Positions 1-17,828 of a stretch of 64,000 bases of DNA are shown piece after piece. The DNA is taken from contig CAWHDT010000005.1 in the NCBI GenBank assembly GCA_963828195.1, forward strand, positions 256,001 to 320,000, read 5' to 3'. Position numbers and translations under genes: made by a program. The notes beneath the pieces are model-generated. The model saw only the letters and a program-made list of their open reading frames with translations. It was not told the DNA's origin and searched no databases. Each line of letters opens with the position of its first letter. Position 1 is the first letter of the stretch. This stretch comes from Candidatus Bathyarchaeota archaeon (GTDB lineage: Archaea > Thermoproteota > Bathyarchaeia > Bathyarchaeales > Bathycorpusculaceae).

Positions 1-4
1 TTTT

Positions 5-46
5 TCAAAAAGACAGCAATAGCTCGGAAACAACTGTTGTTCTTCT
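5..46 (+). repeat. Degenerate partial copy of the dispersed double-hairpin repeat (hairpin 1 only)
   Basis: GGAAACAACTGTTGTTCTTCTG is shared with the copies at ~24.4, 34.4 and 52.7 kb. Confidence 0.6.
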
Positions 47-214
47 GCATCATATAGGATTTCGCGCAAGGTTTTTCTTTAGTTTTCAAAAATGATGCAA
101 TGCCGTAGAGAAGGACAGAAGAATTTTCAACTTAGAAACGCGTTTTGCCCATTTGAAAATATGCGAAAAAATGAAATAGCCCAGCACTCAACATCATAGA
201 GCAGAGGCTTAACT

Positions 215-982
215 TTGTCGTTTAAAGAGAAAATGCAGGAAGCTGCAAAGAGCAAGAGTTCTCCGATTGTTTTGGCGCTGGATTTTCCTTATGAAGCTCC
301 AGGGAACCGGAGCCAAATTTTAGGTAAAGCCCAGAAAATCCTCAAAGCCGTTCACCCATACATCTGCGCAGTAAAAATAAACCATCATCTTACGCTTCCG
401 CTCGGCACCTTTGACGGCGTGCAGCAGCTTGTGGAGCAGATTCGCGGACAAGGCTTGCTTGCAATCATGGATGCTAAAGTAAACGACATAGGCGCAACCA
501 ACCAAGTTATAGCTGACTACTATTACGCGGCGGGTTTTGACGCTTTAATCGCCAACCCATTTGTAGGCTGGGAGGAAGGCTTAGAGCCACTCTTCAAGGT
601 TTCACAGAGGCTTAACCGAGGCGTTATACTTCTCTGCTACATGAGCCACAAAGGAGCAAACGAAGGCTACGGACAAACAATAATTGATCAGGAAACAGGC
701 GAAAAAACGCTGCAGTACGTTTCTTTTGCCAGAAAAGCTTTGAAATGGGGTGCTGACGGAGTGGTCGTCGGCGCAACGGTGCCTCAAAAGATAAGTGAAG
801 TAAAAAAGATTCTCGGGGAAAAAGTCCCCATCTACTCGCCCGGTGTTGGGGCTCAGGGTGGAGCTGCGGAAACGGCGGTTAAGGCGGGAGCCAGCTACCT
901 TATTGTTGGGCGAGAAATCACGATGGCGGCAGACCCAGCGAAAGCGGCAAGTCAGCTTTGCGATTCAGTAAAAGGAATTTAG
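215..982 (+). CDS. pyrF: Orotidine-5'-phosphate decarboxylase
   Basis: ALD, DAKVNDIGAT (DxKxxDIxxT), VVGAT, SPGVGAQGG and IVGR motifs; TTG start. Confidence 0.95.
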   Translation: MSFKEKMQEAAKSKSSPIVLALDFPYEAPGNRSQILGKAQKILKAVHPYICAVKINHHLTLPLGTFDGVQQLVEQIRGQGLLAIMDAKVNDIGATNQVIADYYYAAGFDALIANPFVGWEEGLEPLFKVSQRLNRGVILLCYMSHKGANEGYGQTIIDQETGEKTLQYVSFARKALKWGADGVVVGATVPQKISEVKKILGEKVPIYSPGVGAQGGAAETAVKAGASYLIVGREITMAADPAKAASQLCDSVKGI

Positions 983-988
983 AGCCGT

Positions 989-1144
989 TTATCTTTGGCG
1001 TTTGTTTTCCCAGAGCTCTTTCTTTAGCAAATCACGTACGGAAGAGCGGATTACGCTGCTTCTGCTCGGGTACATGTTAGCTCGGACTAATTCATCTAAA
1101 CCTTCAAGATAAGCTTCTGGTAACAGGACAGTTACAAGTTTCAC
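989..1144 (-). CDS. Small ribbon-helix-helix (CopG/CdrS-like) regulator, 51 aa, not in ORF track
   Basis: Hand translation MKLVTVLLPEAYLEGLDELVRANMYPSRSSVIRSSVRDLLKKELWENKRQR; GGAGG SD before GTG; TATA-like TTTTATAT upstream. Confidence 0.85.
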   Translation of the reverse strand: MKLVTVLLPEAYLEGLDELVRANMYPSRSSVIRSSVRDLLKKELWENKRQR

Positions 1145-1224
1145 TTTATTTTTGCCTCCCTTAAACTATATCATGCATATAACATGCCGCAAATATAAAA
1201 GTTAACCAGCAAACCCCGACTAAA

Positions 1225-2073
1225 TCACAAGTTTCTTAGTTGATTTAAAGTTCCTAAATATGTGCCATCTAAAAGGTAAAGCTCAGAGTTATCCACATCC
1301 ACTGCTTCCGAGCGCAGCACGGGTCCAATCAACGCTTCGCTGCCGATTTCTTTTCGGGGTCTTGTTTCGTTTATTGGTCTGCCGCCGAGGAAATCGTTGA
1401 AGCTGGGCATAATGAAAATCTCCTTCGCCTTCAGCCTGACATTGTAGTGGTTCTTGAGTGTTTCCGTCACGGTGCCTTTGATTTTCACGTTGTGCTTCTG
1501 CAGCAGAATCTTGGCTAAGGCTTCAGAGTTGCAGTTTGCTTTCATCCAGACCTGCCTGGTAATTTTGAATCCTGCTGGGTCACGGAAAACCACAACAGGG
1601 TGCAAATGCCCCATAACCAAGGTTTTGCACTGCAGCAAAGCGGGCGAAGGCCATTTGTGACCATGAAAAACGCCTACATCCCCAATGACTTCTCCAGTCG
1701 CAGGCAGCAGCTTCACACTTTCTGGAAGAAGAGGTTCAAGGTTAGCATCATGGTTCCCCCGCACCACCGCTATTTCATCAACGTAACCCTGCAGTTTTAC
1801 GAAAAAATCGGGGATGTCATGCCACTCGCCCAATTCACTGGAAATCACCGAGTACTTTACGTCGCCGACAATTATCAGCTGCTGCGGCTTGTGTTTGGTG
1901 ATTATTGCGGTTAGTTTGTTGAGGATTTTTTGGGTTTGGCTTGGAACGTGGATTCCCTTTTCTTGAAGGGACATTTCCCAGCCGAGGTGCGGGTCAGCGA
2001 TGAGGAGAACTTTGGTTTTTCCATTTTTTACCAGAGCAGCGGGGTAAGGCCAAAGCAAACGCAACATACTCAT
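1225..2073 (-). CDS. Calcineurin-like metallophosphoesterase
   Basis: DPHLG, GDVK, RGNHD, HGH and GHLHP motifs. Confidence 0.85.
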   Translation of the reverse strand: MSMLRLLWPYPAALVKNGKTKVLLIADPHLGWEMSLQEKGIHVPSQTQKILNKLTAIITKHKPQQLIIVGDVKYSVISSELGEWHDIPDFFVKLQGYVDEIAVVRGNHDANLEPLLPESVKLLPATGEVIGDVGVFHGHKWPSPALLQCKTLVMGHLHPVVVFRDPAGFKITRQVWMKANCNSEALAKILLQKHNVKIKGTVTETLKNHYNVRLKAKEIFIMPSFNDFLGGRPINETRPRKEIGSEALIGPVLRSEAVDVDNSELYLLDGTYLGTLNQLRNL

Positions 2074-2891
2074 TTAACCAGGCTTAAGATTTTTTTATGA
2101 ATCTCCCTGTTGCCTGAAGCCACAAAACTCAAAGTTTGCCGTGGATCCAACTCGACGTTTAAAGCTTGATTGCTCGGCGAAGTCACTATTCCGCCCGCCT
2201 CTTTTATGATGAGAAAAGCCGCCGCCACGTCGGTCGTGCGTAGTTTTCCGCGTATGTCAACAAACGCATCTGTCAACCCGTTTGCTACATAGCAGAGTTC
2301 AAGCGCGTTGGCGCCGAAATGGCGGATATGCTTTGTTTCGCCAATAAGAGCGGTTAGTCTGGGCGCGATTTCCTTGACTTTGTAGGTGTTCAAATCTAAA
2401 CCTATCAATGCATCGCCTAAGTCGGACGTTTTTGAGGGATGAATTTTTTCGCCGTCGCGGTAAGCCCCCTCGCCTCGGAAGGCAGTGTAGGTTACGTCGT
2501 GGAAAAGGTCCGTGACCATGCCCGCGTAAACGTTTGCAAGCGGACGTTTGTCTGAAACCGCGATTGAGCAAGCGTAGAAGGGTAAGCCGTGCATAAAATT
2601 TGTGCTTCCATCAACAGGGTCAACCGTAACAAAACACTCCTCTGCAGCAGAACCATACTTTTTCACTCCTGACTCTTCGCTTATCAGTGTAAACGAAACG
2701 TCATGCCGCTTTAGGGTTTCAACGATTGCGGTTTCAGCTGCCAAATCCATCGGCTTCATAACGTCGCCGCCTGCACCTACACCCAAGTTAGGCTGGGGCT
2801 CCCGAATGGTGGCGATGCATGGCTGAATGCAGGCTTGAACGTTGTTTTTGCATTCAACAAGGATTTTCTGCCAGTCTTCTCGGATTGTCAT
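2070..2891 (-). CDS. suhB: Inositol monophosphatase / FBPase IV family protein
   Basis: ISEESG, VDPVDGSTNF and DVAAA motifs; ATG at 2891 preferred over the track start 2957. Confidence 0.85.
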   Translation of the reverse strand: MTIREDWQKILVECKNNVQACIQPCIATIREPQPNLGVGAGGDVMKPMDLAAETAIVETLKRHDVSFTLISEESGVKKYGSAAEECFVTVDPVDGSTNFMHGLPFYACSIAVSDKRPLANVYAGMVTDLFHDVTYTAFRGEGAYRDGEKIHPSKTSDLGDALIGLDLNTYKVKEIAPRLTALIGETKHIRHFGANALELCYVANGLTDAFVDIRGKLRTTDVAAAFLIIKEAGGIVTSPSNQALNVELDPRQTLSFVASGNREIHKKILSLVK

Positions 2892-3031
2892 CGCGGTGTA
2901 CTTCCATTGTTTCTTATGCACTGTCAAGCTGATAAAATTATGCGCTCTTTGCCCCAAAGTCTAAAGCGTGGGAAAGCCGAGACAAAACTTAAACTATAGT
3001 TTTTCCCTGTAATACTTGACGTGGTTTGCGG

Positions 3032-3256
3032 ATGGAAAGAAAACGAGCGTTTTTGCAGGGACTGGGAATTATCGTTTTCGGAGTCATTTTTATAGCTCTT
3101 ACGTCGGCTCTGTATTTTTTATCCTACGTCAAAGGTGACCACGTCTTTCTTTTTCTCGGTCTCAGCGGCGTTTTGATTTTTTTGGGTGTTGTTGCGATTC
3201 TTGTTTCCAAAAGAGCCCCCTCAAGCGACATTTCGAAACCGCAACGAAAATCATAA
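3032..3256 (+). CDS. Small two-TM membrane protein
   Basis: Two hydrophobic segments and a basic tail; TATA-like sequence upstream. Confidence 0.6.
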   Translation: MERKRAFLQGLGIIVFGVIFIALTSALYFLSYVKGDHVFLFLGLSGVLIFLGVVAILVSKRAPSSDISKPQRKS

Positions 3257-3426
3257 CTACAGTCTAATTCCAAGTTCTTAAGTCGTCGGTTGACGTTTTC
3301 TCCGCGAAAAATCGGTTGGAAACTGAAGGCGAAAATAAGTGGAAAACCCTAATCTAAAATGCAAGCAAAAAAACTTGACGCTAAGAAGCTTTTTTGTTAT
3401 TCTTTTTCTGATAAATCACCCAAATT

Positions 3427-4266
3427 TTATATGCCACTGTTGGAAACAGTTTGCTGACTTGAATTAACGGGTTTTCTTTTTCTCATATAAAGTAGCAGAG
3501 AAACAATGACAACCAATAAGGCAATGATAATAATATAAATCGTTATCGATGAAAACTCTGGAACCGTGGGTGTTGCGGTTGGAGTTGGAGATGGCGTTTG
3601 CGATGTTGTTGGATTTGGTGAAGCAGAAGTTGCAGGAACAGTTATGGTTTGTGTGTTGCTCCAATCGCCCGTTTCACCATTAAAAAATACCATATCGCCC
3701 ATTTGTCCCTCTTGTTCCACATTGGGTTGACCTATCAATGCTCTGACTTGAAAGTCTACTTGACCGCCCACTGGAAAATTAGTTACGCTGCCAACTTGTT
3801 CTCCATTTGGGTTAAGCGGTTCATCGCTGTTAATTGGAACCGAAATAGTCGTGTAGCCGCCATTTGACTGAATGCAATACTGTGTTAATCCAACAGGAGT
3901 TATCGAATTAGAATATGAGTAAAGTTGCCAATCAGAATCATAGTGCCCCTTATACTGAACCTGATACCAAAGGTTAACTTCTGAACCGTTTACCGAGTAC
4001 GACGTAAAAGGTTGATTGGTTATCGTAACATCTATTGACTGGTTCTGTATTGAGTATCCGTTTTGTGTTATTGTAGTCTGTCCTGTGTATGGGTCCACTG
4101 TGGTACTTGGAGCTACACTGAATGGTCGTGCAACAATTTTCAATGTAAATGTTGGAACAGACGGAGTAGGTATCGACTGAGCAGACGCTGGTTTTGCCAT
4201 TATTAGACTTGACACGGCTAAGAGAGCAATAAGAAGCAATGAGAAACTTTTGCTGATTCCACTCAT
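3427..4266 (-). CDS. Secreted surface protein with signal peptide, P/T/S linker and PEF-CTERM-like sorting signal
   Basis: Hydrophobic signal ending ASA; C-terminal VPEF, TM helix and RKRK. Confidence 0.8.
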   Translation of the reverse strand: MSGISKSFSLLLIALLAVSSLIMAKPASAQSIPTPSVPTFTLKIVARPFSVAPSTTVDPYTGQTTITQNGYSIQNQSIDVTITNQPFTSYSVNGSEVNLWYQVQYKGHYDSDWQLYSYSNSITPVGLTQYCIQSNGGYTTISVPINSDEPLNPNGEQVGSVTNFPVGGQVDFQVRALIGQPNVEQEGQMGDMVFFNGETGDWSNTQTITVPATSASPNPTTSQTPSPTPTATPTVPEFSSITIYIIIIALLVVIVSLLLYMRKRKPVNSSQQTVSNSGI

Positions 4267-4452
4267 AATTAGTTTTAGGTAGAGTTAGCGATAAAAGGGT
4301 TCTCGTAAAGATTCATTGCCACAAGATTTCTTGACTTATACAGAAACACGCATTTTCTTAAAATAAAAGACCACTATCATGCGTTCTACAAATAATCAAA
4401 CGAATTTTCACATTCACCACATTTCAACCGACAATTTCACAGAGCCTAATTC

Positions 4453-4467
4453 CGAAACGCTTATATT
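4453..4467 (+). promoter_or_regulatory. Putative BRE/TATA promoter of the aromatic leader and operon
   Basis: CGAAACGC-TTATATT about 40 nt upstream of the leader ATG (4507). Confidence 0.5.
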
Positions 4468-4506
4468 TTCTTGATAACGTCTCATTGAACAAGGGTTCGA
4501 AGCTAC

Positions 4507-4590
4507 ATGTCCAATTGCAAAAGCCACAAAGGAAACAGTTCCGCACAATCGCTCAGCTTCGACTACTATTTTTACGGTTATTTTTCTTAA
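4507..4590 (+). CDS. Putative Phe/Tyr-rich leader (attenuator) peptide, 27 aa
   Basis: MSNCKSHKGNSSAQSLSFDYYFYGYFS*; 7 of the last 10 sense codons are Phe/Tyr; lies directly upstream of the shikimate/Tyr operon. Confidence 0.75.
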   Translation: MSNCKSHKGNSSAQSLSFDYYFYGYFS

Positions 4591-4628
4591 GCCCAGAACT
4601 GAAAAGTTTTTTAAGCAAGGTTCTGGGC
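4591..4628 (+). promoter_or_regulatory. Leader hairpin (candidate attenuator/antiterminator) enclosing a U6 tract
   Basis: GCCCAGAAC (4591-4599) and GTTCTGGGC (4620-4628) form a perfect inverted repeat starting at the base after the leader stop; TTTTTT at 4607-4612. Confidence 0.65.
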
Positions 4629-4646
4629 AAGGCACGGGTGTAAGCG

Positions 4647-5894
4647 ATGGCGAAGAATGATTCTGGCAGAAGAATTGTTGTTAAATTCGGGGGGTCTAGC
4701 CTGGCGGATCATGAGCGGCTCTTGAAAGCGGCGCTTGCCGTGGTCAACGAAGCCAAGGCGGGCACACAGGTCGCTGTTGTAGTTTCTGCTATGGGTAAAA
4801 CAACCGATGTCCTTATGACGACGGCGAAAAACGCTTCCCACGGGAAACTGGAGAAAAAAGACTTGGACGATATCCTCTCTATGGGCGAGCGTACCAGCAT
4901 AAGAATTTTCGCTGCTGCATTGAAAAACAACGGTGCCGAATCCTGCTACTTCGACCCCATCGACAGCAACTGGCCGATAATTACTGATTCAGCATTCCAA
5001 AACGCCAACCCAATACTGAAGGACTGCGAAAAAAATATTCGCGAATGCATACTGCCAGTCATGGAGAAAAGCGTCATACCTGTGGTGGCGGGGTTCCTCG
5101 GCAAAACAAAGGACGGCAAAATCACCACTCTTGGAAGAGGCGGCAGCGACACAACAGCGTTTATCTTAGCTGAAGCCCTGAACGCTGACGAAATCGTCTT
5201 AGTCACCGACGCAGACGGCATAATGTCAGGCGACCCAAAAATCGTGTCGAACCCAGAGCGCCTAAAAGAAATCGACGTTAACACTATAGTGGGGTTAGCT
5301 GATTCAGGCGCCAAATTTATCCACAGCAAAGCCCTAAAGTACAAACCCAAAAACATCAACGTCCGAGTAATCAACCACGCGCACGGCAACTTAACTAAAG
5401 AAGGCACCGTAATCACGGGCGCATTAGCAACGGAACTGGACGCGGAAATAGCTCATCCTTTTCCAGTTGCTGAAATAACGGTGGTCGGAAACGGCATCTC
5501 CGCAAACCCCCAAATCATCCAGGAAATGGTGGAGAAAACCAAACAGCACTCGCAGCTTTTGGGCATGTCGATGAACACAAACTCAATCATACTTTATGCT
5601 TCTCAAGAAAAAACCTTGGACGCACTCTTCAACGACATCCACAATATCACAAAAAGCAACAGGGAAACCATAGCGATGGCGGTCAAAAAAGACTTGGTTT
5701 TCATAAAAACAAGCGGGGTCGGCTTAGAGGAAACCCATGGCATAATTGGGAAAATCAGCGAAGACCTCAGATTGAACGGCATAAACATTTCAGGCATACT
5801 GACCATAACGTCAAGTATTTTGCTTTTTGTAGATTGGAATGAGCGTGAAAAAGCGCTTGCGCTAATTAAAAACTCATTAAGGACTTCGAAATAA
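4647..5894 (+). CDS. lysC: Aspartate kinase with C-terminal ACT domains
   Basis: VVKFGGSS, VVVSAMG, TTLGRGGSDTTA and TDADGIMSGDP motifs. Confidence 0.9.
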   Translation: MAKNDSGRRIVVKFGGSSLADHERLLKAALAVVNEAKAGTQVAVVVSAMGKTTDVLMTTAKNASHGKLEKKDLDDILSMGERTSIRIFAAALKNNGAESCYFDPIDSNWPIITDSAFQNANPILKDCEKNIRECILPVMEKSVIPVVAGFLGKTKDGKITTLGRGGSDTTAFILAEALNADEIVLVTDADGIMSGDPKIVSNPERLKEIDVNTIVGLADSGAKFIHSKALKYKPKNINVRVINHAHGNLTKEGTVITGALATELDAEIAHPFPVAEITVVGNGISANPQIIQEMVEKTKQHSQLLGMSMNTNSIILYASQEKTLDALFNDIHNITKSNRETIAMAVKKDLVFIKTSGVGLEETHGIIGKISEDLRLNGINISGILTITSSILLFVDWNEREKALALIKNSLRTSK

Positions 5895-5910
5895 GCAAAG
5901 GTGACGAAAC

Positions 5911-6702
5911 ATGAATCAAGGAAAAACAAGACGATTAAAAAGAATCATGCAGGAAGACAACCGCACCGTAGTCGTGCCCATGGATCACGGCGTAACAATA
6001 GGCCCAATTCGGGGAATCACTAACATGCAGCAAATAATCGATAAACTCCTAAAAGGCGGAGTTGACGCAGTGCTTGTCCACAAAGGCATCGCCAAACACG
6101 TTGACGCTGGAAACGCAGGGTTAATAGTGATGTTGTCAGGCATGTCAAACCTTAGCCCCAACGTAAACGGTAAAGTTCAAGTATGCAGCGTCAAAGAAGC
6201 CATTCGGCTTGGCGCAGACGCCGTTTCCGTCCACGTGAACGTCGGTTCACAAGATGAAGACAAAATGTTAAGCAACCTAGGCAGTGTAGCCGAAGAATGC
6301 GACTTATACGGCATGCCGCTGCTCGCGATGATGTACCCGCGGGGACCAAAAATACAGGACGAACATGCACCAGAAGTGGTAGCCCACGCAGCAAGAATCG
6401 GCGCTGAACTGGGAGCGGACATAATTAAAACAAACTTCACAGGCAAAATAGACAGCTTCAAAGAGGTTGTCGAAAGCTGCCCGGTTCCAGTCTTGATTGC
6501 CGGAGGACCAAAATGCAAATCTGCCCAAGAAATCCTCCAAACCACACATGACGCTCTGGAGGCGGGAGCCGCGGGACTCTCCATAGGAAGAAACGTGTTC
6601 CAAAACGAAAACCCAACCCTGATAGTAAAAGCGCTCTCAGCAATCGTTCACAGCGGCGCCAGCGTGGAGCAAGCGCTTAAAATTCTCGGTGAAAAACCTT
6701 GA
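5911..6702 (+). CDS. aroA': 2-amino-3,7-dideoxy-D-threo-hept-6-ulosonate synthase (AroA', DhnA-type aldolase)
   Basis: PMDHG, MMYPRG, ELGADIIKT, IAGGPK and GRNVFQ motifs; next to DHQ synthase II. Confidence 0.9.
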   Translation: MNQGKTRRLKRIMQEDNRTVVVPMDHGVTIGPIRGITNMQQIIDKLLKGGVDAVLVHKGIAKHVDAGNAGLIVMLSGMSNLSPNVNGKVQVCSVKEAIRLGADAVSVHVNVGSQDEDKMLSNLGSVAEECDLYGMPLLAMMYPRGPKIQDEHAPEVVAHAARIGAELGADIIKTNFTGKIDSFKEVVESCPVPVLIAGGPKCKSAQEILQTTHDALEAGAAGLSIGRNVFQNENPTLIVKALSAIVHSGASVEQALKILGEKP

Positions 6703-7727
6703 AGGAACTATGGATCGAAATTGGCAAAAAACTAGCTGCCCCGCCATCAAAAATCATTGACGATTACTTTGATGTAGTTATTGATAGCGGCAAAGCTACA
6801 TTTTGGGCAATCGATAAAAACAAACAGGTTGACATTGTTTCTCCAAACAAAGGAGAGCGGCTGGAAAACGCCAATGTTAAAAACGAGATTCTGCGGATTT
6901 GTATCAGTGATAAAGAAACTGAAAACCAAATAGTTGAAGCGGCAGAGCTTGGAGCAAGCTACTTAATTATAAGCTGCGCTAACTGGCGTGTTATTCCTTT
7001 AGAAAACCTTATTGCCCGAATAAAGGGCAAAAGTAAACTCATTGCCGAAGTTACCACTGCTGAAGAAGCCAAGATAGCGCTGGAAACCCTCGAATTAGGA
7101 ACCGATGGAGTTTTACTGAAAACTTCAGACAGCGAGGAAATTCTCAAAGCAGTTGCAGTCGTTAAGCCTGAAGCTTTGAAGCTTGAAATGGCTGTGGCAA
7201 AAATAATTTCTACCAAGCCCATCAGCACGGGCGCTCGAGTTTGCGTAGACACGTGCGATTTGATGACTCAAGGTGAGGGGATGCTTGTGGGCAGCCAAAG
7301 TGCTGGTTTATTTTTGGTGGAGGCAGAGGTGCATGAGAACCCCTATGTTGCGTCTCGGCCGTTTAGGGTGAACGCGGGGTCCTGTTCCATGTATACACTG
7401 GGCAGTTTGCAGACCACTCGTTACCTGCAAGAATTCAAGGCAGGCGACGAAGTCATAGTTGTCAATCGCGAAGGCAAAACCCGCAAAACCAACGTGGGAC
7501 GCATAAAAATCGAGATCAGACCGCTCATCTTAGTAGAAGCGCAAGTCGAAGGCAAAACCATAAAAACTATCCTTCAAAACGCCGAAACCATTCGCCTAGT
7601 AACGCAAGAAGGCTCAAAGCCCGTAACTGAGCTTAAACCCAGCGACGAAGTTATCGTGCACTTAGCCGCCAAGGGAGGCCGGCACTTCGGCATATCAGTG
7701 CCTGAAGAAACGGTGATAGAAAAGTGA
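6699..7727 (+). CDS. aroB': 3-dehydroquinate synthase type II (archaeal AroB')
   Basis: WRVIPLENLIA, RVCVDT, RPFRVNAG, LQNAETIRL and GRHFG motifs. Confidence 0.92.
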   Translation: MKELWIEIGKKLAAPPSKIIDDYFDVVIDSGKATFWAIDKNKQVDIVSPNKGERLENANVKNEILRICISDKETENQIVEAAELGASYLIISCANWRVIPLENLIARIKGKSKLIAEVTTAEEAKIALETLELGTDGVLLKTSDSEEILKAVAVVKPEALKLEMAVAKIISTKPISTGARVCVDTCDLMTQGEGMLVGSQSAGLFLVEAEVHENPYVASRPFRVNAGSCSMYTLGSLQTTRYLQEFKAGDEVIVVNREGKTRKTNVGRIKIEIRPLILVEAQVEGKTIKTILQNAETIRLVTQEGSKPVTELKPSDEVIVHLAAKGGRHFGISVPEETVIEK

Positions 7728-8404
7728 CAACTAGAATCTGCGTTTCGATTCTCCCAAAAGACATCGAGGAAGCATTAAGTCTCATCGAGACAGCTGAAAA
7801 AGAAAAGGCAAACCTCGTAGAAGTAAGACTGGACCACCTTGGAGCAGCCAGAAACCTAAAGGATCTTGTTAAAAGCACAAAAATTCCTCTAATCGCAACA
7901 AACAAGCTCTTAATTGAAAACGGCTTTTTTGGTGGAACAGAAACAGCGCGGCAGCAAACGTTATTTTTGGCTGCTAAAAACGGTTTTGAATATGTAGATG
8001 TTGACTTAGGCGGCTTAAAACTTAAAGAAACAATCGGTGAACTCAAGCCTTTAGGCGCTAAACTAATCGTTTCCTACCACAACTTTAACGGCACATTAAA
8101 CATTTCTGAAATGGTAAAAATTCTGGAAGAAGAAATGGCTTGCGGCGCTAATGTCTGCAAAATCGTGACGACAGCAAATAAAATGGAAGATAACCTTGCA
8201 ATGCTGAATTTTGTTTCCGCCATGTCCAGCAAGACTAAGCTTGTCTGTTTCTGCATGGGCGAGCAAGGAAAAGTTTCCAGGCTTCTTTCGCCGTTGTTCG
8301 GTGCCTTCTTCACGTTTGCTTCTTTGAAGCAGGGCAGTGAAACCGCTGCAGGTCAAATGACTGTTCAGGAAATGAGGGCGACCTACGACCTCTTGGGGGC
8401 ATAA
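7724..8404 (+). CDS. aroD: 3-dehydroquinate dehydratase type I
   Basis: VEVRLD, IVSYHNF, KIV, MGEQGKVSR and AAGQ motifs. Confidence 0.9.
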   Translation: MTTRICVSILPKDIEEALSLIETAEKEKANLVEVRLDHLGAARNLKDLVKSTKIPLIATNKLLIENGFFGGTETARQQTLFLAAKNGFEYVDVDLGGLKLKETIGELKPLGAKLIVSYHNFNGTLNISEMVKILEEEMACGANVCKIVTTANKMEDNLAMLNFVSAMSSKTKLVCFCMGEQGKVSRLLSPLFGAFFTFASLKQGSETAAGQMTVQEMRATYDLLGA

Positions 8405-8407
8405 ATC

Positions 8408-9271
8408 ATGGTTATTTCAGGAAAAACCCAGGTTTGCGGAGTAATCGGTGACCCCATAGAGCACACTCTTAGCCCAATTATTCATAATGCGGCGTTTGAG
8501 GCTTTGAAAATAAACTATGTTTTTTTAGCCTTCAGAGTAAAATCCGCGGAGGTTGAAAACGCGGTAAAGGGCATGCGCGCATTAAGCATCCACGGCTTAA
8601 ACGTAACTATGCCGCATAAAAACGCCGTCATAAAATTCTTGGATGAAGTGGACCCCACTGGCAAAGCCATAGGTTCCGTCAACACTATCCTGAACAAAGA
8701 TGGGCGCCTTCTCGGGTTCAACACGGACGGCGTCGGAGCCCTAACTGCGCTGGAACAAAACGGCGTCGAGCTAAAAGGTAAAAAGGTGCTGTTGCTTGGA
8801 GCAGGCGGCGCCGCAAAAGCAATAGCGTACACGCTCTCGCAAGACGCAGATGAACTGGTAATTTTGAACCGCACACCTGAACCAGCCTCCGAATTAGCCG
8901 GGCTATTGAAACAAAAGTTCAACAAAAAAATCAGCGCAGACAAGCTCTCGCCAAACGCAGTAAAAGATAACCTCGGTAACTCCGAAGTGCTCATTAACGC
9001 CACTTCAATCGGGATGAAACCAAACGCCGATCAAACCCCAGTTGCACCCGAATGGCTCAGACCTGACTTGGCAGTGATGGACATAGTGTATAATCCAATT
9101 GAGACGAAGCTCGCTAAAGATGCTAAAGCGGCAGGAGCCAAAGTCGTGGGCGGAGTGGAAATGCTGATTTCTCAAGGCGCCGTTTCGTTCGAAATCTTCA
9201 CTGCTTGCAAGGCGCCAGTTGCGGTTATGAGGAAGGCAGCGCTTAATCACTTGCGGACGGTGCAGAAGTGA
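8408..9271 (+). CDS. aroE: Shikimate dehydrogenase
   Basis: NVTMPHK, SVNT, NTDG, GAGGAA, NATSIGM and DIVYNP motifs. Confidence 0.95.
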   Translation: MVISGKTQVCGVIGDPIEHTLSPIIHNAAFEALKINYVFLAFRVKSAEVENAVKGMRALSIHGLNVTMPHKNAVIKFLDEVDPTGKAIGSVNTILNKDGRLLGFNTDGVGALTALEQNGVELKGKKVLLLGAGGAAKAIAYTLSQDADELVILNRTPEPASELAGLLKQKFNKKISADKLSPNAVKDNLGNSEVLINATSIGMKPNADQTPVAPEWLRPDLAVMDIVYNPIETKLAKDAKAAGAKVVGGVEMLISQGAVSFEIFTACKAPVAVMRKAALNHLRTVQK

Positions 9272-10137
9272 CTGGGAAAGCGACGGCTATAGCTCATGGC
9301 GCGGCAACAATCGTGAATGCAATGGCGCTTGGCAAGGGCGCAGCATTCGGGGTTGACCTGTGGACTAAAGCCGAAGTAAAATTAACAGATGAACCCCATG
9401 TTATCAAGGCAGAAATAACCTCTGACCCCAAAGAAAACACCGCTTTAACCGAAAAAACCGTGATGCGGGTTCTGCGGCGGTTCAGCTTAGAGAACAGTTT
9501 TGGCGCCCAAGTAAAAACTTGGTCAAATATCCCTATCGCTAAAGGACTTAAAAGCAGCAGCACAGCCGCAAACGCAGTAGCCCTGGCAGCTACGGCAGCG
9601 TTGGACAAAACGCTTAGCGACTTAGAACTTGTCAATTTAGGCGTGGATGCTGCTTTTGACGCCAAAGTGACTGTAACAGGCGCTTTTGATGATGCATCTG
9701 CGTCATTCTTCGGCGGAGCAGTTATTACTGACAATTTGAATCGGGAAATAGTTAAGCAGTTGCCGTTGGCTGAAGACTTAATTGTTCTTTTCCATGTGCC
9801 GCCCCAGAAAGCGTACTCAGCCAACGCTGACGTGGCGAGGCTTCAAACTGTGAAACCGCTTGTTGAAGTCGCCTACAAGCAAGCGCTGGAAGGCAAGGTT
9901 TGGGAGGCGTTAACGCTTAACGGCTTAATTTATTCTTCAGCCTTCGGGTACAACCCTTCAATCGCGATTGATGCGTTGGCTGCCGGAGCGGCGGCGGCTG
10001 GATTATGCGGCAAAGGACCTGCGGTGACGGCGGTTACGCCCAGGGGCAAAGTTGATTCCGTGAAAACAGCACTGCAAAAATATGACGGCACAATAATACA
10101 GGCTAACATTAACCGTGAAAAAGCCAAGGTGCTCTAG
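9268..10137 (+). CDS. aroK: Archaeal GHMP-family shikimate kinase
   Basis: IPIAKGLKSSS, TVTGAFDDA and GKGP motifs. Confidence 0.9.
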   Translation: MTGKATAIAHGAATIVNAMALGKGAAFGVDLWTKAEVKLTDEPHVIKAEITSDPKENTALTEKTVMRVLRRFSLENSFGAQVKTWSNIPIAKGLKSSSTAANAVALAATAALDKTLSDLELVNLGVDAAFDAKVTVTGAFDDASASFFGGAVITDNLNREIVKQLPLAEDLIVLFHVPPQKAYSANADVARLQTVKPLVEVAYKQALEGKVWEALTLNGLIYSSAFGYNPSIAIDALAAGAAAAGLCGKGPAVTAVTPRGKVDSVKTALQKYDGTIIQANINREKAKVL

Positions 10138-10140
10138 CCA

Positions 10141-11445
10141 ATGACAAACATAATCATTAAGAAAACTGAAAAACTAAACGGCGAGGTTTGTGCTCCGCCA
10201 TCAAAGTCTTACACACAGAGAATGGCAATAGCCGCTGCACTGTCCGAGGGAGTTTCCAAAGTGTCAAATCCGCTTTTGTCAGAAGACACCCAAGCAACCC
10301 TGCGAGCCATCACTGCTTTAGGCGCCAACGTGGCGGCGGCTGAAGGCTGCTGGACTATTACGGGCGCAAACCCGCTTACAAACGCCAAAGAGCCTATTAA
10401 CTGCGGTGAATCAGGCGCCACATTGCGTTTCATGATACCTGTAGCGGCTTTACCGCCTGACCCATCAACTCTAATTTTTAAAGGTTCAATTGAACATAGA
10501 CCCATCGAACCATTAATCAAAAGTCTCGAGGAACTCGGGGCAAAAGCGCATCTGCGAAAACTTGGGGGCAAAGACGCCGTTGTAGTCGAGGGCGGCGGCA
10601 TCTTAGGAGGCGAAACCTCCATTCCGGGAGATGTCAGTTCCCAGTTTATTTCAGGATTAATGCTTGCCTGCCCAATGGCAAAAGTGGACACAGAAATCAC
10701 CCTAACGACTCCCCTTGAATCCGCGGATTACGTTAAAATGACGAGTGATGTTCTTTTTAAGCATGCGATTCAATTGGAAATTCACGACAACTTTAAACTC
10801 ATAAAGATCCCCGCTAACCAAACCTACAAGGCTGTTGACTGCAGAGTGCAAGGTGATTTTTCTTCAGCTGCATTCCTCCTCTCTGCCGCAGCAATAACAA
10901 GCTCCAAAGTTCAGGTAAGTAATCTTGAATACAAAAGTGTTCAAGGCGACAAGGCAATTCTGGGAATCCTAAAGCAAATGGGAATCGAAGGAAAAGTATG
11001 CCCCAGCAGCATCGAAATAAACGGAACCGGCAATTCGCTTGGACCCGTCAATGTTGACGCAAAAAATATTCCTGACTTAGTTCCAGCCTGCGCCGCGCTT
11101 GCATGCTACGCCGAAGGCACATCAAAAATCAGCGGTGCACAAAGGCTCAAACTTAAGGAGTCGGATAGGTTGAAGTCGCTTTATCTTGAGTTGAGAAAGA
11201 TGGGCGCAAAAATAAAGGCAGATTCAAGCAGCTTAACTATAGAAGGCCCCTGTGCCCTGCATGGCGCAGTAATTGACCCCCACAACGACCACCGCATAGC
11301 GATGGCCTGCGCGGTTGCAGCTTTAGGTGCGGAAGGCCAAACTACAATTCAACACGCTGAGTGTGTTCGAAAGTCTTATCCGCAGTTCTTCACTCATCTA
11401 AAACAGGTAGGAGCTGAAATTGTTGGCGGGAAATTCGATTGGTAA
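10141..11445 (+). CDS. aroA: 3-phosphoshikimate 1-carboxyvinyltransferase (EPSP synthase)
   Basis: PPSKS, CGESGATLR, SSQFISG, KESDR and DHRIAM motifs. Confidence 0.95.
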   Translation: MTNIIIKKTEKLNGEVCAPPSKSYTQRMAIAAALSEGVSKVSNPLLSEDTQATLRAITALGANVAAAEGCWTITGANPLTNAKEPINCGESGATLRFMIPVAALPPDPSTLIFKGSIEHRPIEPLIKSLEELGAKAHLRKLGGKDAVVVEGGGILGGETSIPGDVSSQFISGLMLACPMAKVDTEITLTTPLESADYVKMTSDVLFKHAIQLEIHDNFKLIKIPANQTYKAVDCRVQGDFSSAAFLLSAAAITSSKVQVSNLEYKSVQGDKAILGILKQMGIEGKVCPSSIEINGTGNSLGPVNVDAKNIPDLVPACAALACYAEGTSKISGAQRLKLKESDRLKSLYLELRKMGAKIKADSSSLTIEGPCALHGAVIDPHNDHRIAMACAVAALGAEGQTTIQHAECVRKSYPQFFTHLKQVGAEIVGGKFDW

Positions 11446-12529
11446 AGAATTCACAGTAACCACTTTCGGCGAAAGCCACGGCAGCGTCGTCGGCGTAGTC
11501 GTCGATGGCTGCCCAGCAGGGTTGCGCTTCTCCGAAGCAGATATTCAAGCAGAACTGGATAGACGCATTCCACCGGAACCCAAAATTGTTTCGGGAAGAA
11601 TCGAAAAAGACTCAGCCAAAATATTGTCAGGAGTTTTTAACGGTTTCACAACTGGCGCCCCAATAGCTTTAATCGTTGAAAACAAGGATGTTGACTCAAG
11701 CAATTACGAGGCAATCAAGGATTTACCACGGCCCGGGCATGCAGACTACCCAGCAAGCATAAAGTATGGAGGCTTTAACGATTACCGAGGCGGCGGACGC
11801 TTCTCAGGCAGGCTTACAGTCGCACTTATCATGGCCGGCGCGGTAGCCAAAAAACTGCTGAGCAGATTCGACGTTGACGTTTTAGCTTACACCCGAGCAG
11901 TTGGCAAAATTAAAAGTGATAAAGCGTTTACTGCTGAAGAAATCCGCAACAACAGGTACAAAGCGGTTACTCGATGTCCAGACTTTGCCTGTGCAGAAAG
12001 AATGGAAGAAGCCATCGTTGCCGCGAGAAAAGAGGGGGATAGTCTCGGAGGAATAGTTGAATGCATTGCCCTAAATGTCCCCGTAGGCGTTGGTGAGCCA
12101 CTGTTTGATTCGCTTGATGCGGATTTGGCAAAAGCCCTGTTTGATGTTCCCGCCGTAAAAGGTGTCGAGTTCGGCTTGGGCTTTAGAGCTTCAGAGTTAA
12201 AGGGCTCAGAAAACAACGACGCCTACTTTATGCAAAGCGGCAAAGTTGCAACGTCAACGGATAATGCAGGGGGCATCTTGGGAGGAATATCCACTGGAAT
12301 GCCAATCATGATGCAAGTTGCCATTAAACCAACTCCTTCAATCAACAAAGAACAAAAAACTGTTAATCTGTCTAAGATGGAAAATGCACGCCTCAGCATT
12401 AAGGGCAGGCATGACCCATGTGTGGTCCCGAAGGCTGTGCCCGCCGTGGAATCCGCGGTCGCCATAACCTTAGCTGACCATATGATTCGCGCTGGCTTTA
12501 TACCGAAAGTTTTGGAGAGACAGAAATAA
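11420..12529 (+). CDS. aroC: Chorismate synthase
   Basis: FGESHG, RPGHAD, GGILGGIS and GRHDPC motifs. Confidence 0.95.
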   Translation: MLAGNSIGKEFTVTTFGESHGSVVGVVVDGCPAGLRFSEADIQAELDRRIPPEPKIVSGRIEKDSAKILSGVFNGFTTGAPIALIVENKDVDSSNYEAIKDLPRPGHADYPASIKYGGFNDYRGGGRFSGRLTVALIMAGAVAKKLLSRFDVDVLAYTRAVGKIKSDKAFTAEEIRNNRYKAVTRCPDFACAERMEEAIVAARKEGDSLGGIVECIALNVPVGVGEPLFDSLDADLAKALFDVPAVKGVEFGLGFRASELKGSENNDAYFMQSGKVATSTDNAGGILGGISTGMPIMMQVAIKPTPSINKEQKTVNLSKMENARLSIKGRHDPCVVPKAVPAVESAVAITLADHMIRAGFIPKVLERQK

Positions 12530-12801
12530 TGGATGAAATCCAACAGCTTCGAAAAAAAGTAGACCAAGTTGACATGCAAATACTAAATGCCCTAAACGAA
12601 AGAGCCAAAATATGCAGAACTATCGGGTTAGCCAAGAAAAAAGTGGGGATGGAAATAAGGGACACTTCCAGAGAAAACGAGGTGTATAAGCGAGTTAAGG
12701 AAAAAGCGGTTGAATTTCATCTGGACCCCCTGCAAGTTGAAGCGGTTTACCGCGAAATAGTTAATATGTGCAGTGCTGTTCAAGAGGGGAAAGAACTCTA
12801 A
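12529..12801 (+). CDS. Chorismate mutase (AroQ type)
   Basis: LRKKVDQVD...LNERAK...IGLAKK...RDTSRE pattern; operon context. Confidence 0.85.
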   Translation: MDEIQQLRKKVDQVDMQILNALNERAKICRTIGLAKKKVGMEIRDTSRENEVYKRVKEKAVEFHLDPLQVEAVYREIVNMCSAVQEGKEL

Positions 12802-12815
12802 CGGAGAGTTGATCT

Positions 12816-13895
12816 GTGCTTTACGAAATAAATGAGAAAGCCATAAGGCTCGAAAATCAAGGCAAAAAAATAATCCGCTTAAACCTAGGAGACCCAGACT
12901 TAGCTACGCCAAACGAGATAATTGAAGCTGCGTACGCGGCGATGAAGGCGGGCAAAACAAAGTATTCTTCCTCTTACGGCGAAACCAACCTCAGAGAAAA
13001 GCTCGCCGAATTCCACGGAGTTAAAGCTGAAAATGTTGTTATCACTCCTGGTTCAAAATGGGGCATATTCGCTACAATGTATCTTATGTTGAAGGCTGGG
13101 GGAAACGTTATAATTCCCATGCCTTACTGGACAGCTTATGATTTAATCGCTAAAAGCCTTGGTGCTCAAACCAAACTTTTAAAGACCGAGATGGAAAATG
13201 GCTGGAAAGTAGATTTAGACAAGCTTGAAGCCATGATTGACAGCAACACCCGCATGATTATACTTAACAATCCGAACAATCCGACAAGCAAAGTCATGGA
13301 TACTGAAACACTTGACGGCATAGTTGAGATAGCCAACAGGAAAGGCGTTACAATATTGTCCGATGAGGTTTATGGCACAATCAGTTTCGTTAAATCAAAA
13401 AGCATCTTAGAGTACAACGGCAACCACAAACACATCTTAACCACTGGCTTCTCCAAAACCTTCACCATGACAGGCTGGCGAATAGGCTACATCGTGGCAA
13501 ACAAAGAGTTAGTCAACAACATAACCAAGCTAAACCAAATCACAATCAACAACGTCCCAGTTTTTATTCAGGAAGCAGCGCTAAAAGGGCTAGAAATGCA
13601 GAAACAACTTGCCACAAAAATAAAGAAGGAATATGAAGAACGCGCAAAAATGGCAAGCAAAACCTTAGCCAAAGCAGGATTCTTATTCACTGAGCCTGAA
13701 GCGCCGTTCTACGTGTTTCCCATGCATAAGGGTTTAAACTCGGAAAAATTCACTTTAGAACTGCTTGACAAGGGCGTAGCCGTTGCTCCAGGCACAGCCT
13801 TCGGCGATTATAGTGAGCATTTTCGCATTTCCTTAACCGCGCCGAGAGATCAAATTAAGGTCGGGTTGGAAAAAATCAGCGAGGCTCTTGAATGA
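12816..13895 (+). CDS. PLP-dependent class I/II aminotransferase (aromatic/aspartate)
   Basis: NNPNNPT, SDEVY, FSKTFTMTGWRIG and PGTAFG motifs. Confidence 0.9.
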   Translation: MLYEINEKAIRLENQGKKIIRLNLGDPDLATPNEIIEAAYAAMKAGKTKYSSSYGETNLREKLAEFHGVKAENVVITPGSKWGIFATMYLMLKAGGNVIIPMPYWTAYDLIAKSLGAQTKLLKTEMENGWKVDLDKLEAMIDSNTRMIILNNPNNPTSKVMDTETLDGIVEIANRKGVTILSDEVYGTISFVKSKSILEYNGNHKHILTTGFSKTFTMTGWRIGYIVANKELVNNITKLNQITINNVPVFIQEAALKGLEMQKQLATKIKKEYEERAKMASKTLAKAGFLFTEPEAPFYVFPMHKGLNSEKFTLELLDKGVAVAPGTAFGDYSEHFRISLTAPRDQIKVGLEKISEALE

Positions 13896-14764
13896 AAACC
13901 GCGATTCTAGGCGCCGGAAAGATGGGTGTCTGGTTCGCGAAATTCTGCAAAGAAAGCGGCGAGACAGTTGTTCTCGCTGACCGAAAAGCAGAGAAGTTGC
14001 CGAAACTGGCTAAGGAATTGGGAGTTGAAACCGCAGTCAGCTTCACTGAAGCCGTCAAAGATGCAGAGCTTATTATAGTATGCGTTTCAATAAGCAGCTT
14101 TGAAGAAGTCATCAAAACTATAGCCCCCAGCATCAGAAACGAACAAGTGGTAATGGATATCTGTTCAATCAAAGAGTATCCTGTCAGGGTAATGCATGAG
14201 AACATCAAACATGGCTTAGTTTTGGGCACTCACCCGCTTTTTGGTCCAGGAAGCAGCGGCGTCAAAGGAAAAGCATACATTTTGACTCCCACCAACCCTG
14301 AAGAAGAAAAATACGCTTTCAAATTCAAGGGGTGGCTGGAAAAGGTGGAAGCACATGTTTTTATTATGTCTCCTAAAAAGCATGATGAGTTGATTTCAGT
14401 TGTTTTGGGGTTGCCGCATTTCTTGGGGCTTGCCGCCTGCGAGGCGCTTGTGGAACGCAAAGATTTTGCAGAGACAAAAGAGGTTGCCGGAACCACTTAT
14501 CGGATGCTGTTCACTTTGGCAGAAGTTACAGCGCTGGAAACCCCCGACCTATATGCTAACCTTCAAACGAAACTGTCTGATTTTTCAATCGAAGACTTGT
14601 TTATGGCTAAAGCTAAAGAGTGGCTTGAACTGGTTAAAAGCGGAGATGCAGACGCAATCATGAAACGCATGGAGCAGCTAAAGGCAAAGTTGACTGAAGC
14701 TGACCCAGACTTCACCAAATCATACGAAGCAATGTACCGCATGCTTGAAGCTGCAGAAAAATAG
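13892..14764 (+). CDS. tyrA: Prephenate/arogenate dehydrogenase
   Basis: GAGKMG, DICSIK, GTHPLFGP and HD...GLPH motifs. Confidence 0.9.
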   Translation: MKTAILGAGKMGVWFAKFCKESGETVVLADRKAEKLPKLAKELGVETAVSFTEAVKDAELIIVCVSISSFEEVIKTIAPSIRNEQVVMDICSIKEYPVRVMHENIKHGLVLGTHPLFGPGSSGVKGKAYILTPTNPEEEKYAFKFKGWLEKVEAHVFIMSPKKHDELISVVLGLPHFLGLAACEALVERKDFAETKEVAGTTYRMLFTLAEVTALETPDLYANLQTKLSDFSIEDLFMAKAKEWLELVKSGDADAIMKRMEQLKAKLTEADPDFTKSYEAMYRMLEAAEK

Positions 14765-14772
14765 GGAAATTT

Positions 14773-15405: not shown

Positions 15406-15494
15406 CCATTGGTATTGGCACATTTTTGTTACATATGTAACAAATTCGTTCCAATGTTAACCCCAAAGCTTCATCAAAACAAGAAAACAAAATT

Positions 15495-17824: not shown

Positions 17825-17828
17825 TTTT

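Follow-up and report, generated by a model that had tools for sequence, protein, structure and literature searches.

Whether an archaeon might adjust the synthesis of aromatic amino acids by following the progress of a ribosome along a short upstream open reading frame (ORF) is the question raised by a 64,000-nucleotide (nt) stretch of DNA from Candidatus Bathyarchaeota archaeon (GenBank assembly GCA_963828195.1, contig CAWHDT010000005.1, positions 256,001 to 320,000 of the forward strand), hereafter referred to as the window, in which an ORF ending in a run of Phe and Tyr codons lies directly upstream of an aspartate kinase gene that heads a series of aromatic amino acid (aro) biosynthetic genes. 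The source assembly comprises 2.83 Mb in 9 contigs and is estimated to be 96% complete. Comparison of the locus with those of its relatives revealed a conserved leader ORF with a characteristic codon signature, two conserved RNA helices, consistent rules governing the placement of these elements, and a U-rich asymmetry between the arms of the second helix. Judged by these features, the element is on balance probably a ribosome-mediated attenuator of the archaeal aro operon, and we infer that the ORF is translated, that ribosomes stall within it, that the switch has the sign set out below, and that its output is termination by way of FttA and a U-tract.

The leader ORF, taken from the ORF list, consists of 27 codons plus a TAA stop at positions 4507 to 4590 (all features are on the + strand and are numbered from the first base of the window) and has the predicted peptide MSNCKSHKGNSSAQSLSFDYYFYGYFS. 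The tail of the peptide reads F-D-Y-Y-F-Y-G-Y-F-S, with the codons between 4555 and 4590 being AGC TTC GAC TAC TAT TTT TAC GGT TAT TTT TCT TAA, such that seven of the last ten sense codons are aromatic (three Phe and four Tyr). Direct reading places the cluster of candidate regulatory codons, from the single TTC through to the final TTT, at 4558 to 4584. An earlier note, prepared from the sequence of the window, had described the ORF and its codons, a hairpin at the stop codon, a T6 run, a GGGTG motif and the ATG of the kinase, and all of these were found at the positions that it had given. It had also cautioned that Phe and Tyr codons, being T-rich, can cluster by chance in AT-rich DNA. This is a fair point within the confines of one genome, where 8 of 9584 small upstream ORFs have at least 7 aromatic residues in a 10-residue window, mostly as poly-Phe stretches derived from T-runs, but it is overruled by conservation of the leader at 27 of 27, 53 of 53 and 116 of 119 loci or upstream sequences in three samples, the composition of which is as follows.

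All counts were taken over related, non-independent genomes. Orthologues of the aspartate kinase (71-94% identity) are present in 23 of the 24 other genomes of the same genus that were searched, the exception being a genome that is 65% complete, and a leader with a tail rich in Phe and Tyr, and sometimes Trp, was found at every one of 27 orthologous loci, 24 of which are from the genus (the window included) and 3 from two other families. The Phe/Tyr cluster was kept in frame in every orthologous leader examined, as the earlier note would have it. In a sample extended to the whole family, the kinase orthologue occurs in 59 of 151 genomes, representing 26 of 70 genera, and the leader was identified in all 53 upstream regions that were fetched (26 genera). 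Pooling with 57 further records gave 139 loci with 119 distinct upstream sequences, among which 116 have a leader by the criterion of at least 5 aromatic residues among the last 12; the three without are 39%-identical paralogues located in another context. Class-wide, the kinase was found in 113 of 301 genomes, and 26 of 50 upstream regions from 15 further families of the class encode an aromatic tail (families are denoted here by f-numbers; those concerned are f7, f11, f14, f16, f19, f27, f30, f32, f34 and f37). Among the remaining class loci, a single locus from f15 has an aromatic tail by eye, one upstream sequence is incomplete, and 22, which account for all loci from f26, f35, f17 and f31, have a different short conserved ORF, with the best-frame statistic reaching 5 only once in these 22. 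In total, therefore, 141 distinct relatives have a tail rich in Phe, Tyr or Trp, comprising 115 from the order to which the window belongs and 26 from ten further families of Bathyarchaeia. Beyond the class, 20 loci from 9 families belonging to other classes of the phylum were considered, and in 14 of these the last 12 residues include 5 or more aromatic ones, and in 10 they include 6 or more.

The 22 loci with the alternative ORF merit separate mention. The regions upstream of the aro-linked kinases in f26, f35, f17 and f31 share a short ORF or motif of another kind, exemplified by MGDRLFGDGVY, GYIFGGHLYGGH and ..LYVFRRS.VY, with repeated GGTGA/GGAGG-like words around TTTTC, and this ORF may constitute a second type of leader for the same operon. 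The gene for 2-amino-3,7-dideoxy-D-threo-hept-6-ulosonate (ADH) synthase lies just downstream in 5 of 5 genomes checked from this set.

The manner in which the leaders vary is informative with regard to what has been conserved. In the 12 C-terminal residues of the 141 leaders, Tyr accounts for 35%, Phe for 28% and Trp for 1.4%, the three together averaging 64% of the tail, with Trp occurring in the tails of 23 leaders. The leader frame is open in all 92 of the sequences analysed from the window's own group (group A), with stops interrupting the +1 frame in 48 and the +2 frame in 85. Tyr codons vary synonymously within the group, with TAC 58 times and TAT 28 times at one position and TAT 40 times and TAC 26 times at another. 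The ORF varies from 22 to 29 amino acids in length in group A, and the N-terminal two thirds of the peptide is variable and poorly conserved. As far as can be judged from sequence, such variation is typical of a translated ORF on which selection acts for amino acid content and not for a fixed peptide. The residue next to the stop is Pro in 34 of the 141 leaders and Asn in 35, either of which may slow release at the stop codon, a hint that derives from bacterial data.

The sequences surrounding the codon cluster form two conserved helices, and RNAalifold, applied to the 92 group-A sequences, returned exactly these two. Stem 1 pairs a 5' arm, TCGAAGC (4497 to 4503; alignment columns 28-34), which precedes the leader ATG by 3 nt and lies at the very beginning of the predicted transcript, with a 3' arm, GCTTCGA (4556 to 4562; columns 90-96), that falls inside the Ser(AGC)-Phe(TTC)-Asp(GAC) codons at the start of the aromatic cluster. 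The helix is of 7 base pairs (bp), with 98.9% of cells paired across the 92 sequences, and the changes observed are either G-U wobbles or compensated. The Phe codon within stem 1 is TTC in 90 of 92 sequences, against 174 TTT and 19 TTC for the other leader Phe codons, indicating a constraint at the nucleotide level. This second conserved helix, which joins the initiation region to the first of the regulatory codons, was absent from the earlier note. Stem 2 has a purine- and A-rich 5' arm, GCCCAGAAC, that begins with the first base after the stop codon (4591 to 4599), a 20-nt loop (4600 to 4619) containing an A-run at 4602-4605 and the T6 run at 4607-4612, and a U-containing 3' arm, GTTCTGGGC, at 4620 to 4628. 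The 9-bp hairpin alone has a predicted energy of -17.8 kcal/mol (z-score -4.49; 1 of 200 shuffles equally stable), and the exact motif is unique in the genome.

The earlier note had proposed covariation as a check on the post-stop helix, and the wobble and compensatory changes seen in the 92 sequences, when set against shuffled alignments, do support it. Of the 1472 cells in the two helices together, 98.4% are paired, which none of 500 shuffles attained, and two-sided changes occur in 5 of 16 pairs, as many being observed in 1 of 500 shuffles. Controls in which the partners were slid by 1-3 columns had only 23-47% of cells paired. Most of the changes in both stems are G-U wobbles, which keep an RNA helix intact and break a DNA palindrome, and they thus count against a DNA operator. 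A second group, comprising 13 sequences with a kinase that is ∼50% identical, retains the two-helix plan with unrelated sequences; stem 1 in this case is of 11 bp and pairs the codons for P-I-A-T with those for S-G-Y-W, and stem 2 differs also. In other families the sequences of the post-stop hairpin are entirely unrelated, with the position relative to the stop being fixed: a hairpin was called in 140 of 141 leaders, beginning at a distance of 0-8 nt from the first stop-codon base and no more than 5 nt after the stop, in agreement with the placement at the stop claimed initially. Outside groups A and C, the evidence for stem 1 is more equivocal. Duplex energies compared with shuffles gave median z-scores of -2.1 to +0.4, in a test that used 15 group-A sequences (every 6th of the 92, i.e. 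16, of which one was too short) plus all others, and which is little discriminating because the windows are long and permissive; clear single examples of stem 1 are found in f30, f27 and f14, and no claim is based on counts. In f58 and f62, from other classes of the phylum, the leaders end in ..YFGP, and the last two codons together with the stop form a mini-palindrome, GGTCCC-TAA-GGGGACC, so that a small hairpin, with the stop codon in its loop, is nested at the base of the larger one.

No conserved alternative partner for any arm emerged from constrained consensus folds in which the mate was forbidden or a ribosome mask applied, indicating that the element is not a bacterial attenuator of the three-helix kind. 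Similarly, an Rfam cmscan search of positions 4200-4800 with a cut-off of E≤10 returned only three chance-level matches, all located elsewhere in that interval and falling short of their gathering scores by more than 29 bits.

The distribution of U-rich sequence within and around stem 2 bears on the possible output of the element. In group A, a run of at least four T residues is present in 84 of 92 loops (15% when shuffled), and of at least five in 61 of 92 (4% when shuffled), with an A-run lying 5' of the T-run in 53 of 60. Measured from the first base of the stop codon, the T-run ends at a distance of 19-31 nt (median 25). After the stem, where AAGGCACGGGTG is found in the window, none of 91 group-A sequences has a run of at least four T residues. 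A T-run of the form TTTT(T) or TTCTT comes after the stem in groups B and C and in f14, f11 and f7, and is followed by the Shine-Dalgarno (SD) sequence, as for example with TTTTT before GGGGG in groups B and C. The asymmetry of the arms is more general, since in 14 of 15 family groups the 3' arm has a U fraction of 0.23-0.54 and the 5' arm, which is A-rich, one of 0-0.20. With regard to termination elsewhere in the genome, a run of five or more T residues was found in 489 of 950 gene 3' regions. The 35 nt that lie 5' of these 489 runs have a folding energy of -3.2 kcal/mol compared with -2.7 kcal/mol for shuffled sequences, with 3% at -10 kcal/mol or below. Sequences upstream of the T-runs are hence hardly structured, indicating that ordinary terminators in this organism look like bare U-tracts, as PMC8716108 reports for other archaea, and that a strong, conditional hairpin is not a generic terminator. 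A scan for generic terminators across positions 1-20000 of the window returned 21 sites against 27.1 expected. A side observation is the GC-rich palindrome with a long T-run that lies right after the stop of the gene preceding trpE (contig C8, ∼192,500-192,560), which is one of few bacterial-looking terminators in the genome.

The earlier note had envisaged the hairpin as an antiterminator that cages a U-tract, and this idea has fared unevenly. The in-frame cluster and the position of the hairpin have been borne out, and the argument for its sign is supported. The caged tract is conserved and non-random in the loops of group A, but other groups have a T-run after the stem, or none, so that the tract is not a general feature, and stem 1 had been overlooked. 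More seriously, the T-run in the loop is transcribed before the 3' arm exists, and the hairpin cannot therefore protect this run from intrinsic termination there; concealment would be effective only against a later reader of the RNA, such as FttA (aCPSF1). What has been described of this factor is compatible with such a role. In PMC8716108, the KH domains of aCPSF1 are reported to bind U-tracts and archaeal termination to proceed without requirement for a hairpin, and according to PMC11616081, FttA/aCPSF1 requires ∼36 nt of nascent RNA, with a terminator that spans RNA positions -1 to -36, including a U at -23 and U-rich RNA at -30 to -36. Going by that spacing, the T-run at 4607-4612 and the 3' arm at 4620-4628 fit a polymerase positioned at about 4642-4645, just before the kinase ATG.

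From these considerations the following mechanism can be proposed. The short leader ORF, in which Phe and Tyr predominate among the last codons and Trp is included in some species, would be translated from its own promoter, and the position of the leader ribosome would decide whether stem 2, which spans from the leader stop to just before the ribosome-binding site of the first gene, forms while RNA polymerase is transcribing it. A ribosome protects roughly 12-15 nt 3' of the A site. When charged Phe- and Tyr-tRNA are plentiful, the ribosome would reach the stop and, with the stop codon in the A site, cover the 5' arm of stem 2. The U-rich 3' half of the hairpin, i.e. the loop T-run and the 3' arm, would then be left single-stranded behind a polymerase that has no following ribosome, and the U-tract/FttA (aCPSF1) machinery would end the transcript before translation of the kinase. 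When these tRNAs are scarce, the ribosome would stall 5-10 codons before the stop, leaving the 5' arm of stem 2 free and holding the 3' arm of stem 1 inside the ribosome; stem 2 would form, sequester the U-rich half and permit read-through, with the operon ON. Starvation would accordingly correspond to stem 2 formed and stem 1 open, and plenty to stem 2 prevented for as long as the ribosome occupies the stop and stem 1 re-closed. Since a biosynthetic operon must be ON in starvation, stem 2 is expected to represent the ON state, which upholds the argument of the earlier note on this point as the only sign that fits a biosynthetic operon.

Both states would relax to the same fold once the ribosome leaves, and an irreversible step is thus needed, with polymerase just downstream. 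For a polymerase at ∼4642-4645, the T-run and 3' arm would be in the path of FttA and the SD sequence of the kinase would still be inside the polymerase, such that no kinase ribosome could protect the complex; with stem 2 formed, the RNA in the path of FttA would not be single-stranded. Stem 1 may function as a gate that closes the start region of the leader behind a passing, unstalled ribosome, in which case it would mainly be the first ribosome, travelling with the polymerase, that does the sensing.

Other explanations can be offered for the same arrangement. Stem 2, together with the T-run where there is one, could itself be the terminator, in which case a ribosome at the stop would block the hairpin and allow read-through and a stall upstream would lead to termination, unless the usual sign is restored by an antiterminator that escaped detection. 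With its purine-rich 5' arm and its U-rich 3' arm, stem 2 does resemble bacterial terminators, the order of hairpin, TTTT(T) or TTCTT and SD sequence in groups B, C, f14, f11 and f7 would suit one, and a ribosome that directly blocks a terminator hairpin is known in E. coli pyrBI. However, such a switch would turn a biosynthetic operon OFF on starvation, no arm has a conserved antiterminator partner, the window's group lacks the post-stem T-run (0/91), and terminators in this genome are hairpin-less U-tracts, and archaeal termination is reported in PMC8716108 to be independent of hairpins; this explanation is considered unlikely. An output at the level of translation or mRNA stability, whereby the state of stem 2 or stem 1 would alter initiation at the kinase, the restarting of translation beyond the leader stop, or mRNA decay beginning at the 5' end, is unlikely to the same degree. 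It would account for the fact that stem 2 ends 2-9 nt before the SD sequence in nearly all lineages, for the occlusion by stem 1 of the leader's own initiation region, and for the post-stop hairpin of f44, which contains the SD sequence. Against this, the unpaired probability of the SD window does not shift in one consistent direction with a ribosome modelled at the stop or at the stall site (in group A, 0.42 when free, 0.44 when stop-masked and 0.46 when stall-masked, with equal numbers of sequences rising and falling), pairing between an arm and the SD sequence is not conserved, save for a 4-bp GCCC:GGGU interaction seen only with the 3' arm forbidden, and the relaxation of both states to one fold after departure of the ribosome would again call for an irreversible step. 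Sequestration of the SD sequence was also considered as a mechanism for the element as a whole and was rejected, as 115 leaders folded in the free, stop-masked and stall-masked states gave no consistent shift in accessibility in any group.

The U-rich tract of Phe and Tyr codons could alternatively be the landing site for the termination factor, masked by a stalled ribosome and uncovered by a released one, in parallel with tnaC and Rho; stem 2 would then be no more than a pause or spacer. The sign of such a switch is correct, the codons provide a single-stranded U-rich tract of 25-30 nt, and a preference of FttA/aCPSF1 for U-rich RNA is described in PMC8716108 and PMC11616081, but neither the near-universal hairpin at the stop (140/141) nor the U-richness of its 3' arm is explained, and we hold this to be quite improbable. 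Less probable again is that the aromatic tail is a TnaC-like arrest peptide, sensing free aromatic amino acids or a pathway intermediate in the tunnel such that the ribosome is held at the stop and stem 2 remains open. The frequency of Pro (34/141) or Asn (35/141) before the stop, the former being a slow-release context in bacteria, would lend itself to this idea; the order and number of Phe, Tyr and Trp residues nevertheless vary freely between lineages, which fits the counting of codons better than a specific contact between peptide and tunnel, and no fixed peptide motif is shared across families. It is very improbable, finally, that ribosome sensing plays no part and that a protein recognises the inverted repeats as DNA operators, or that the ORF encodes a functional micropeptide. 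One family shows almost no variation at positions 1-7 of stem 2, and the reverse strand can also fold (-14.7 kcal/mol), yet the G-U wobbles break the symmetry of the DNA, folding of 5'G-3'U pairs is confined to the sense RNA, the arms of different families have unrelated sequences at a fixed position relative to the stop, and the N-terminal two thirds of the peptide is unconserved.

Attenuation through an FttA-directed switch has difficulties of its own. The mechanism assumes that the ribosome stays at the stop codon for ∼1 second while the polymerase moves ∼50 nt. The T-run has no consistent place: the window's group has it in the loop and several others have it 3' of the stem, and in some, such as f30, f34 and f19, it is weak or absent; moreover, those groups with a T-run after the hairpin resemble a bacterial intrinsic terminator, which implies the opposite sign. 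In f44, which is a distant family, the stop codon lies only ∼22 nt from the kinase start and a small hairpin at that location includes the SD sequence, an arrangement that looks more like translational coupling. The kin from which the counts derive are not independent, so the counts overstate the statistical support. Finally, full-length FttA is absent from the TIGR03675 matches in this 96%-complete assembly, the best of which scores 259 bits and is without the KH region, even though a full-length FttA/aCPSF1 (TIGR03675 above cut-off) was found in 18 of 21 relatives, in 17 of these with more than 800 bits. The missing protein is probably attributable to an assembly gap. The best match in question is a beta-CASP protein of 427 amino acids (contig C3:328155-329411). 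With these points in mind, the proposal in its fullest form, namely that this is the first archaeal leader-peptide attenuator, ancient and distributed across Bathyarchaeia and other classes of Thermoproteota, in which the stop-codon hairpin is an antiterminator that hides a U-rich entry site for FttA/aCPSF1 until exposed by a finishing ribosome, an inverted logic unknown in bacteria, is put forward tentatively, as a possibility that falls somewhat short of being probable.

Comparison with established systems serves to define what would be novel. As with the trp, pheA, his and thr leaders of E. coli (Rfam Phe_leader and kin), a short ORF with codons for the product of the pathway is located between a promoter and the first biosynthetic gene, a stable hairpin comes after the ORF, and sensing presumably occurs by stalling on hungry codons. 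The element hence shares with attenuators of the trp/phe/his type the clustering of regulatory codons in a short ORF and the position between promoter and cognate operon, but lacks their structural hallmarks, that is, the alternative helices and, in the window, the terminator composed of a GC-rich hairpin with a U-run. Unlike those leaders, its host is archaeal, it has two independent helices in place of a mutually exclusive 1:2 / 2:3 / 3:4 set, the stop abuts the hairpin, no U-run follows the stem in the window, no Rfam match was obtained, and the sign comes out right only if the hairpin represents the ON state, opposite to the role of a bacterial terminator hairpin. Nor does it have the features of translational attenuation of the ermC/cat type, in which the SD sequence is sequestered and then freed by a stalled leader ribosome.

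Closer parallels in other respects are afforded by two further E. coli systems. The tna operon (TnaC, Rho) is factor-dependent, and a ribosome near the end of the leader controls access of the factor beside the stop. There it is the ribosome that directly masks the site of the factor, and the nascent peptide senses a free amino acid as the signal, whereas here the hairpin is proposed to mask and the ribosome to unmask, with FttA/aCPSF1 as the factor and tRNA charging as the signal. In output, the element would be nearest to factor-dependent attenuation of this tna/Rho kind, with the hairpin as a shield. As in pyrBI, the ribosome would compete sterically with a single hairpin and no antiterminator helix is involved; pyrBI differs in that the hairpin is the terminator, the ribosome prevents termination, and the signal is polymerase pausing at low UTP and not tRNA charging. 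With regard to mycobacteria, the cysteine-rich leaderless short ORFs are not known to follow a hairpin-at-stop rule. These ORFs are nonetheless similar in being rich in a single amino acid, in having a very short or absent 5' untranslated region, and in attenuating an operon according to that amino acid, as outlined in bioRxiv 10.1101/834739, the system described in that source being bacterial, unlike the one considered here. In archaea, the same pathway is controlled by TrpY in Methanothermobacter and Tar in Thermococcus, which are DNA-binding proteins that act at promoters, as distinct from the cis-acting leader ORF and RNA helices of the present locus.

Features flanking the leader are consistent with its proposed function. 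A promoter of archaeal type, with a transcription factor B recognition element (BRE)/TATA-like sequence (CCGAAACG plus CTTATATTTT), was recognised by direct reading at 4452 to 4469, and of the 89 group-A relatives with 60 nt or more of upstream sequence, 83 have the motif GAAAYRCTTWTAY at 39-57 nt 5' of the leader ATG. On the basis of the usual spacing between TATA and transcript start, transcription is predicted to begin near 4490. The SD-like sequence of the kinase, GGGTG (4636 to 4640), lies 7 nt 3' of stem 2, with a G-rich SD sequence 3' of the hairpin evident also in the relatives inspected, and the kinase ATG is at 4647, 18 nt beyond stem 2. Upstream, the neighbour of the leader is a gene for a PEF-CTERM protein that is divergently oriented, so the hairpin is not its terminator.

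The putative regulated genes extend from 4647 to 12529, and were assigned from NCBIfam matches and ORF coordinates. They encode, in order, aspartate kinase, ADH synthase, 3-dehydroquinate synthase II, aroD, aroE, an archaeal shikimate kinase, 5-enolpyruvylshikimate-3-phosphate (EPSP) synthase and chorismate synthase, and the short or overlapping junctions between them suggest that they belong to a single operon. A gap of 286 nt (12530-12815), which may hold an internal promoter or second control region, separates the chorismate synthase gene from genes for an aminotransferase, prephenate dehydrogenase (tyrA) and an amidotransferase, which continue on the same strand to 15405; a prephenate dehydratase gene is convergent at 15495-16307. 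The ADH route draws on aspartate semialdehyde, hence it makes sense for an aro operon to begin with a dedicated aspartate kinase. The kinase gene (4647-5894) is the first of the operon, and there are other kinase-like matches elsewhere in the genome; the aro-linked copy suggests pathway-specific control of the supply of aspartate semialdehyde. ADH synthase is encoded on the same strand as the kinase, either adjoining or ∼1.1 kb downstream, in 9 of 10 genomes of the class that were checked, and divergently in one, and the linkage between kinase and ADH synthase was found in 3 of 5 genomes from outside Bathyarchaeia. At one locus from f11, the ADH synthase gene is divergent from the leader-kinase unit, and the leader there would control the kinase without the rest of the pathway in cis.

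The aro leader appears to stand alone in this genome. A crude composition scan for leaders specific to other amino acids gave none, and no Trp-rich leader was seen before trpE. When the genome was scanned by architecture, that is, for a short ORF with a stop codon that abuts a hairpin of -11 kcal/mol or lower, 35 of 1559 contexts were returned, and only the aro leader among them was enriched in particular amino acids. An identical gene with its upstream sequence was noted on two contigs (C1:297398-298516 and C6:19152-20270), representing a repeat or a copy of a mobile element.

Leader-peptide attenuation is a textbook bacterial mechanism. Full-text literature searches, to which most subscription journals and supplements are out of reach, returned no description of it in archaea, and the words attenuation, attenuator and leader peptide are absent from a 2021 review of archaeal transcription-translation coupling. 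In PMC11616081, archaeal coupling and FttA polarity are treated as a hypothesis that still needs the structure of a coupled complex. Should the proposed mechanism be correct, the leader described here would provide a compact natural substrate with which to test both transcription-translation coupling and FttA polarity in archaea, and a portable, amino-acid-responsive switch for archaeal genetics. The locus also singles out a dedicated aspartate kinase as the step at which the archaeal ADH route to aromatic amino acids begins and is regulated. More broadly, the mechanism would mean that archaea can read the charging of tRNA by way of the translating ribosome, and that tRNA charging is linked to factor-dependent termination through the coupling of transcription and translation in these organisms.

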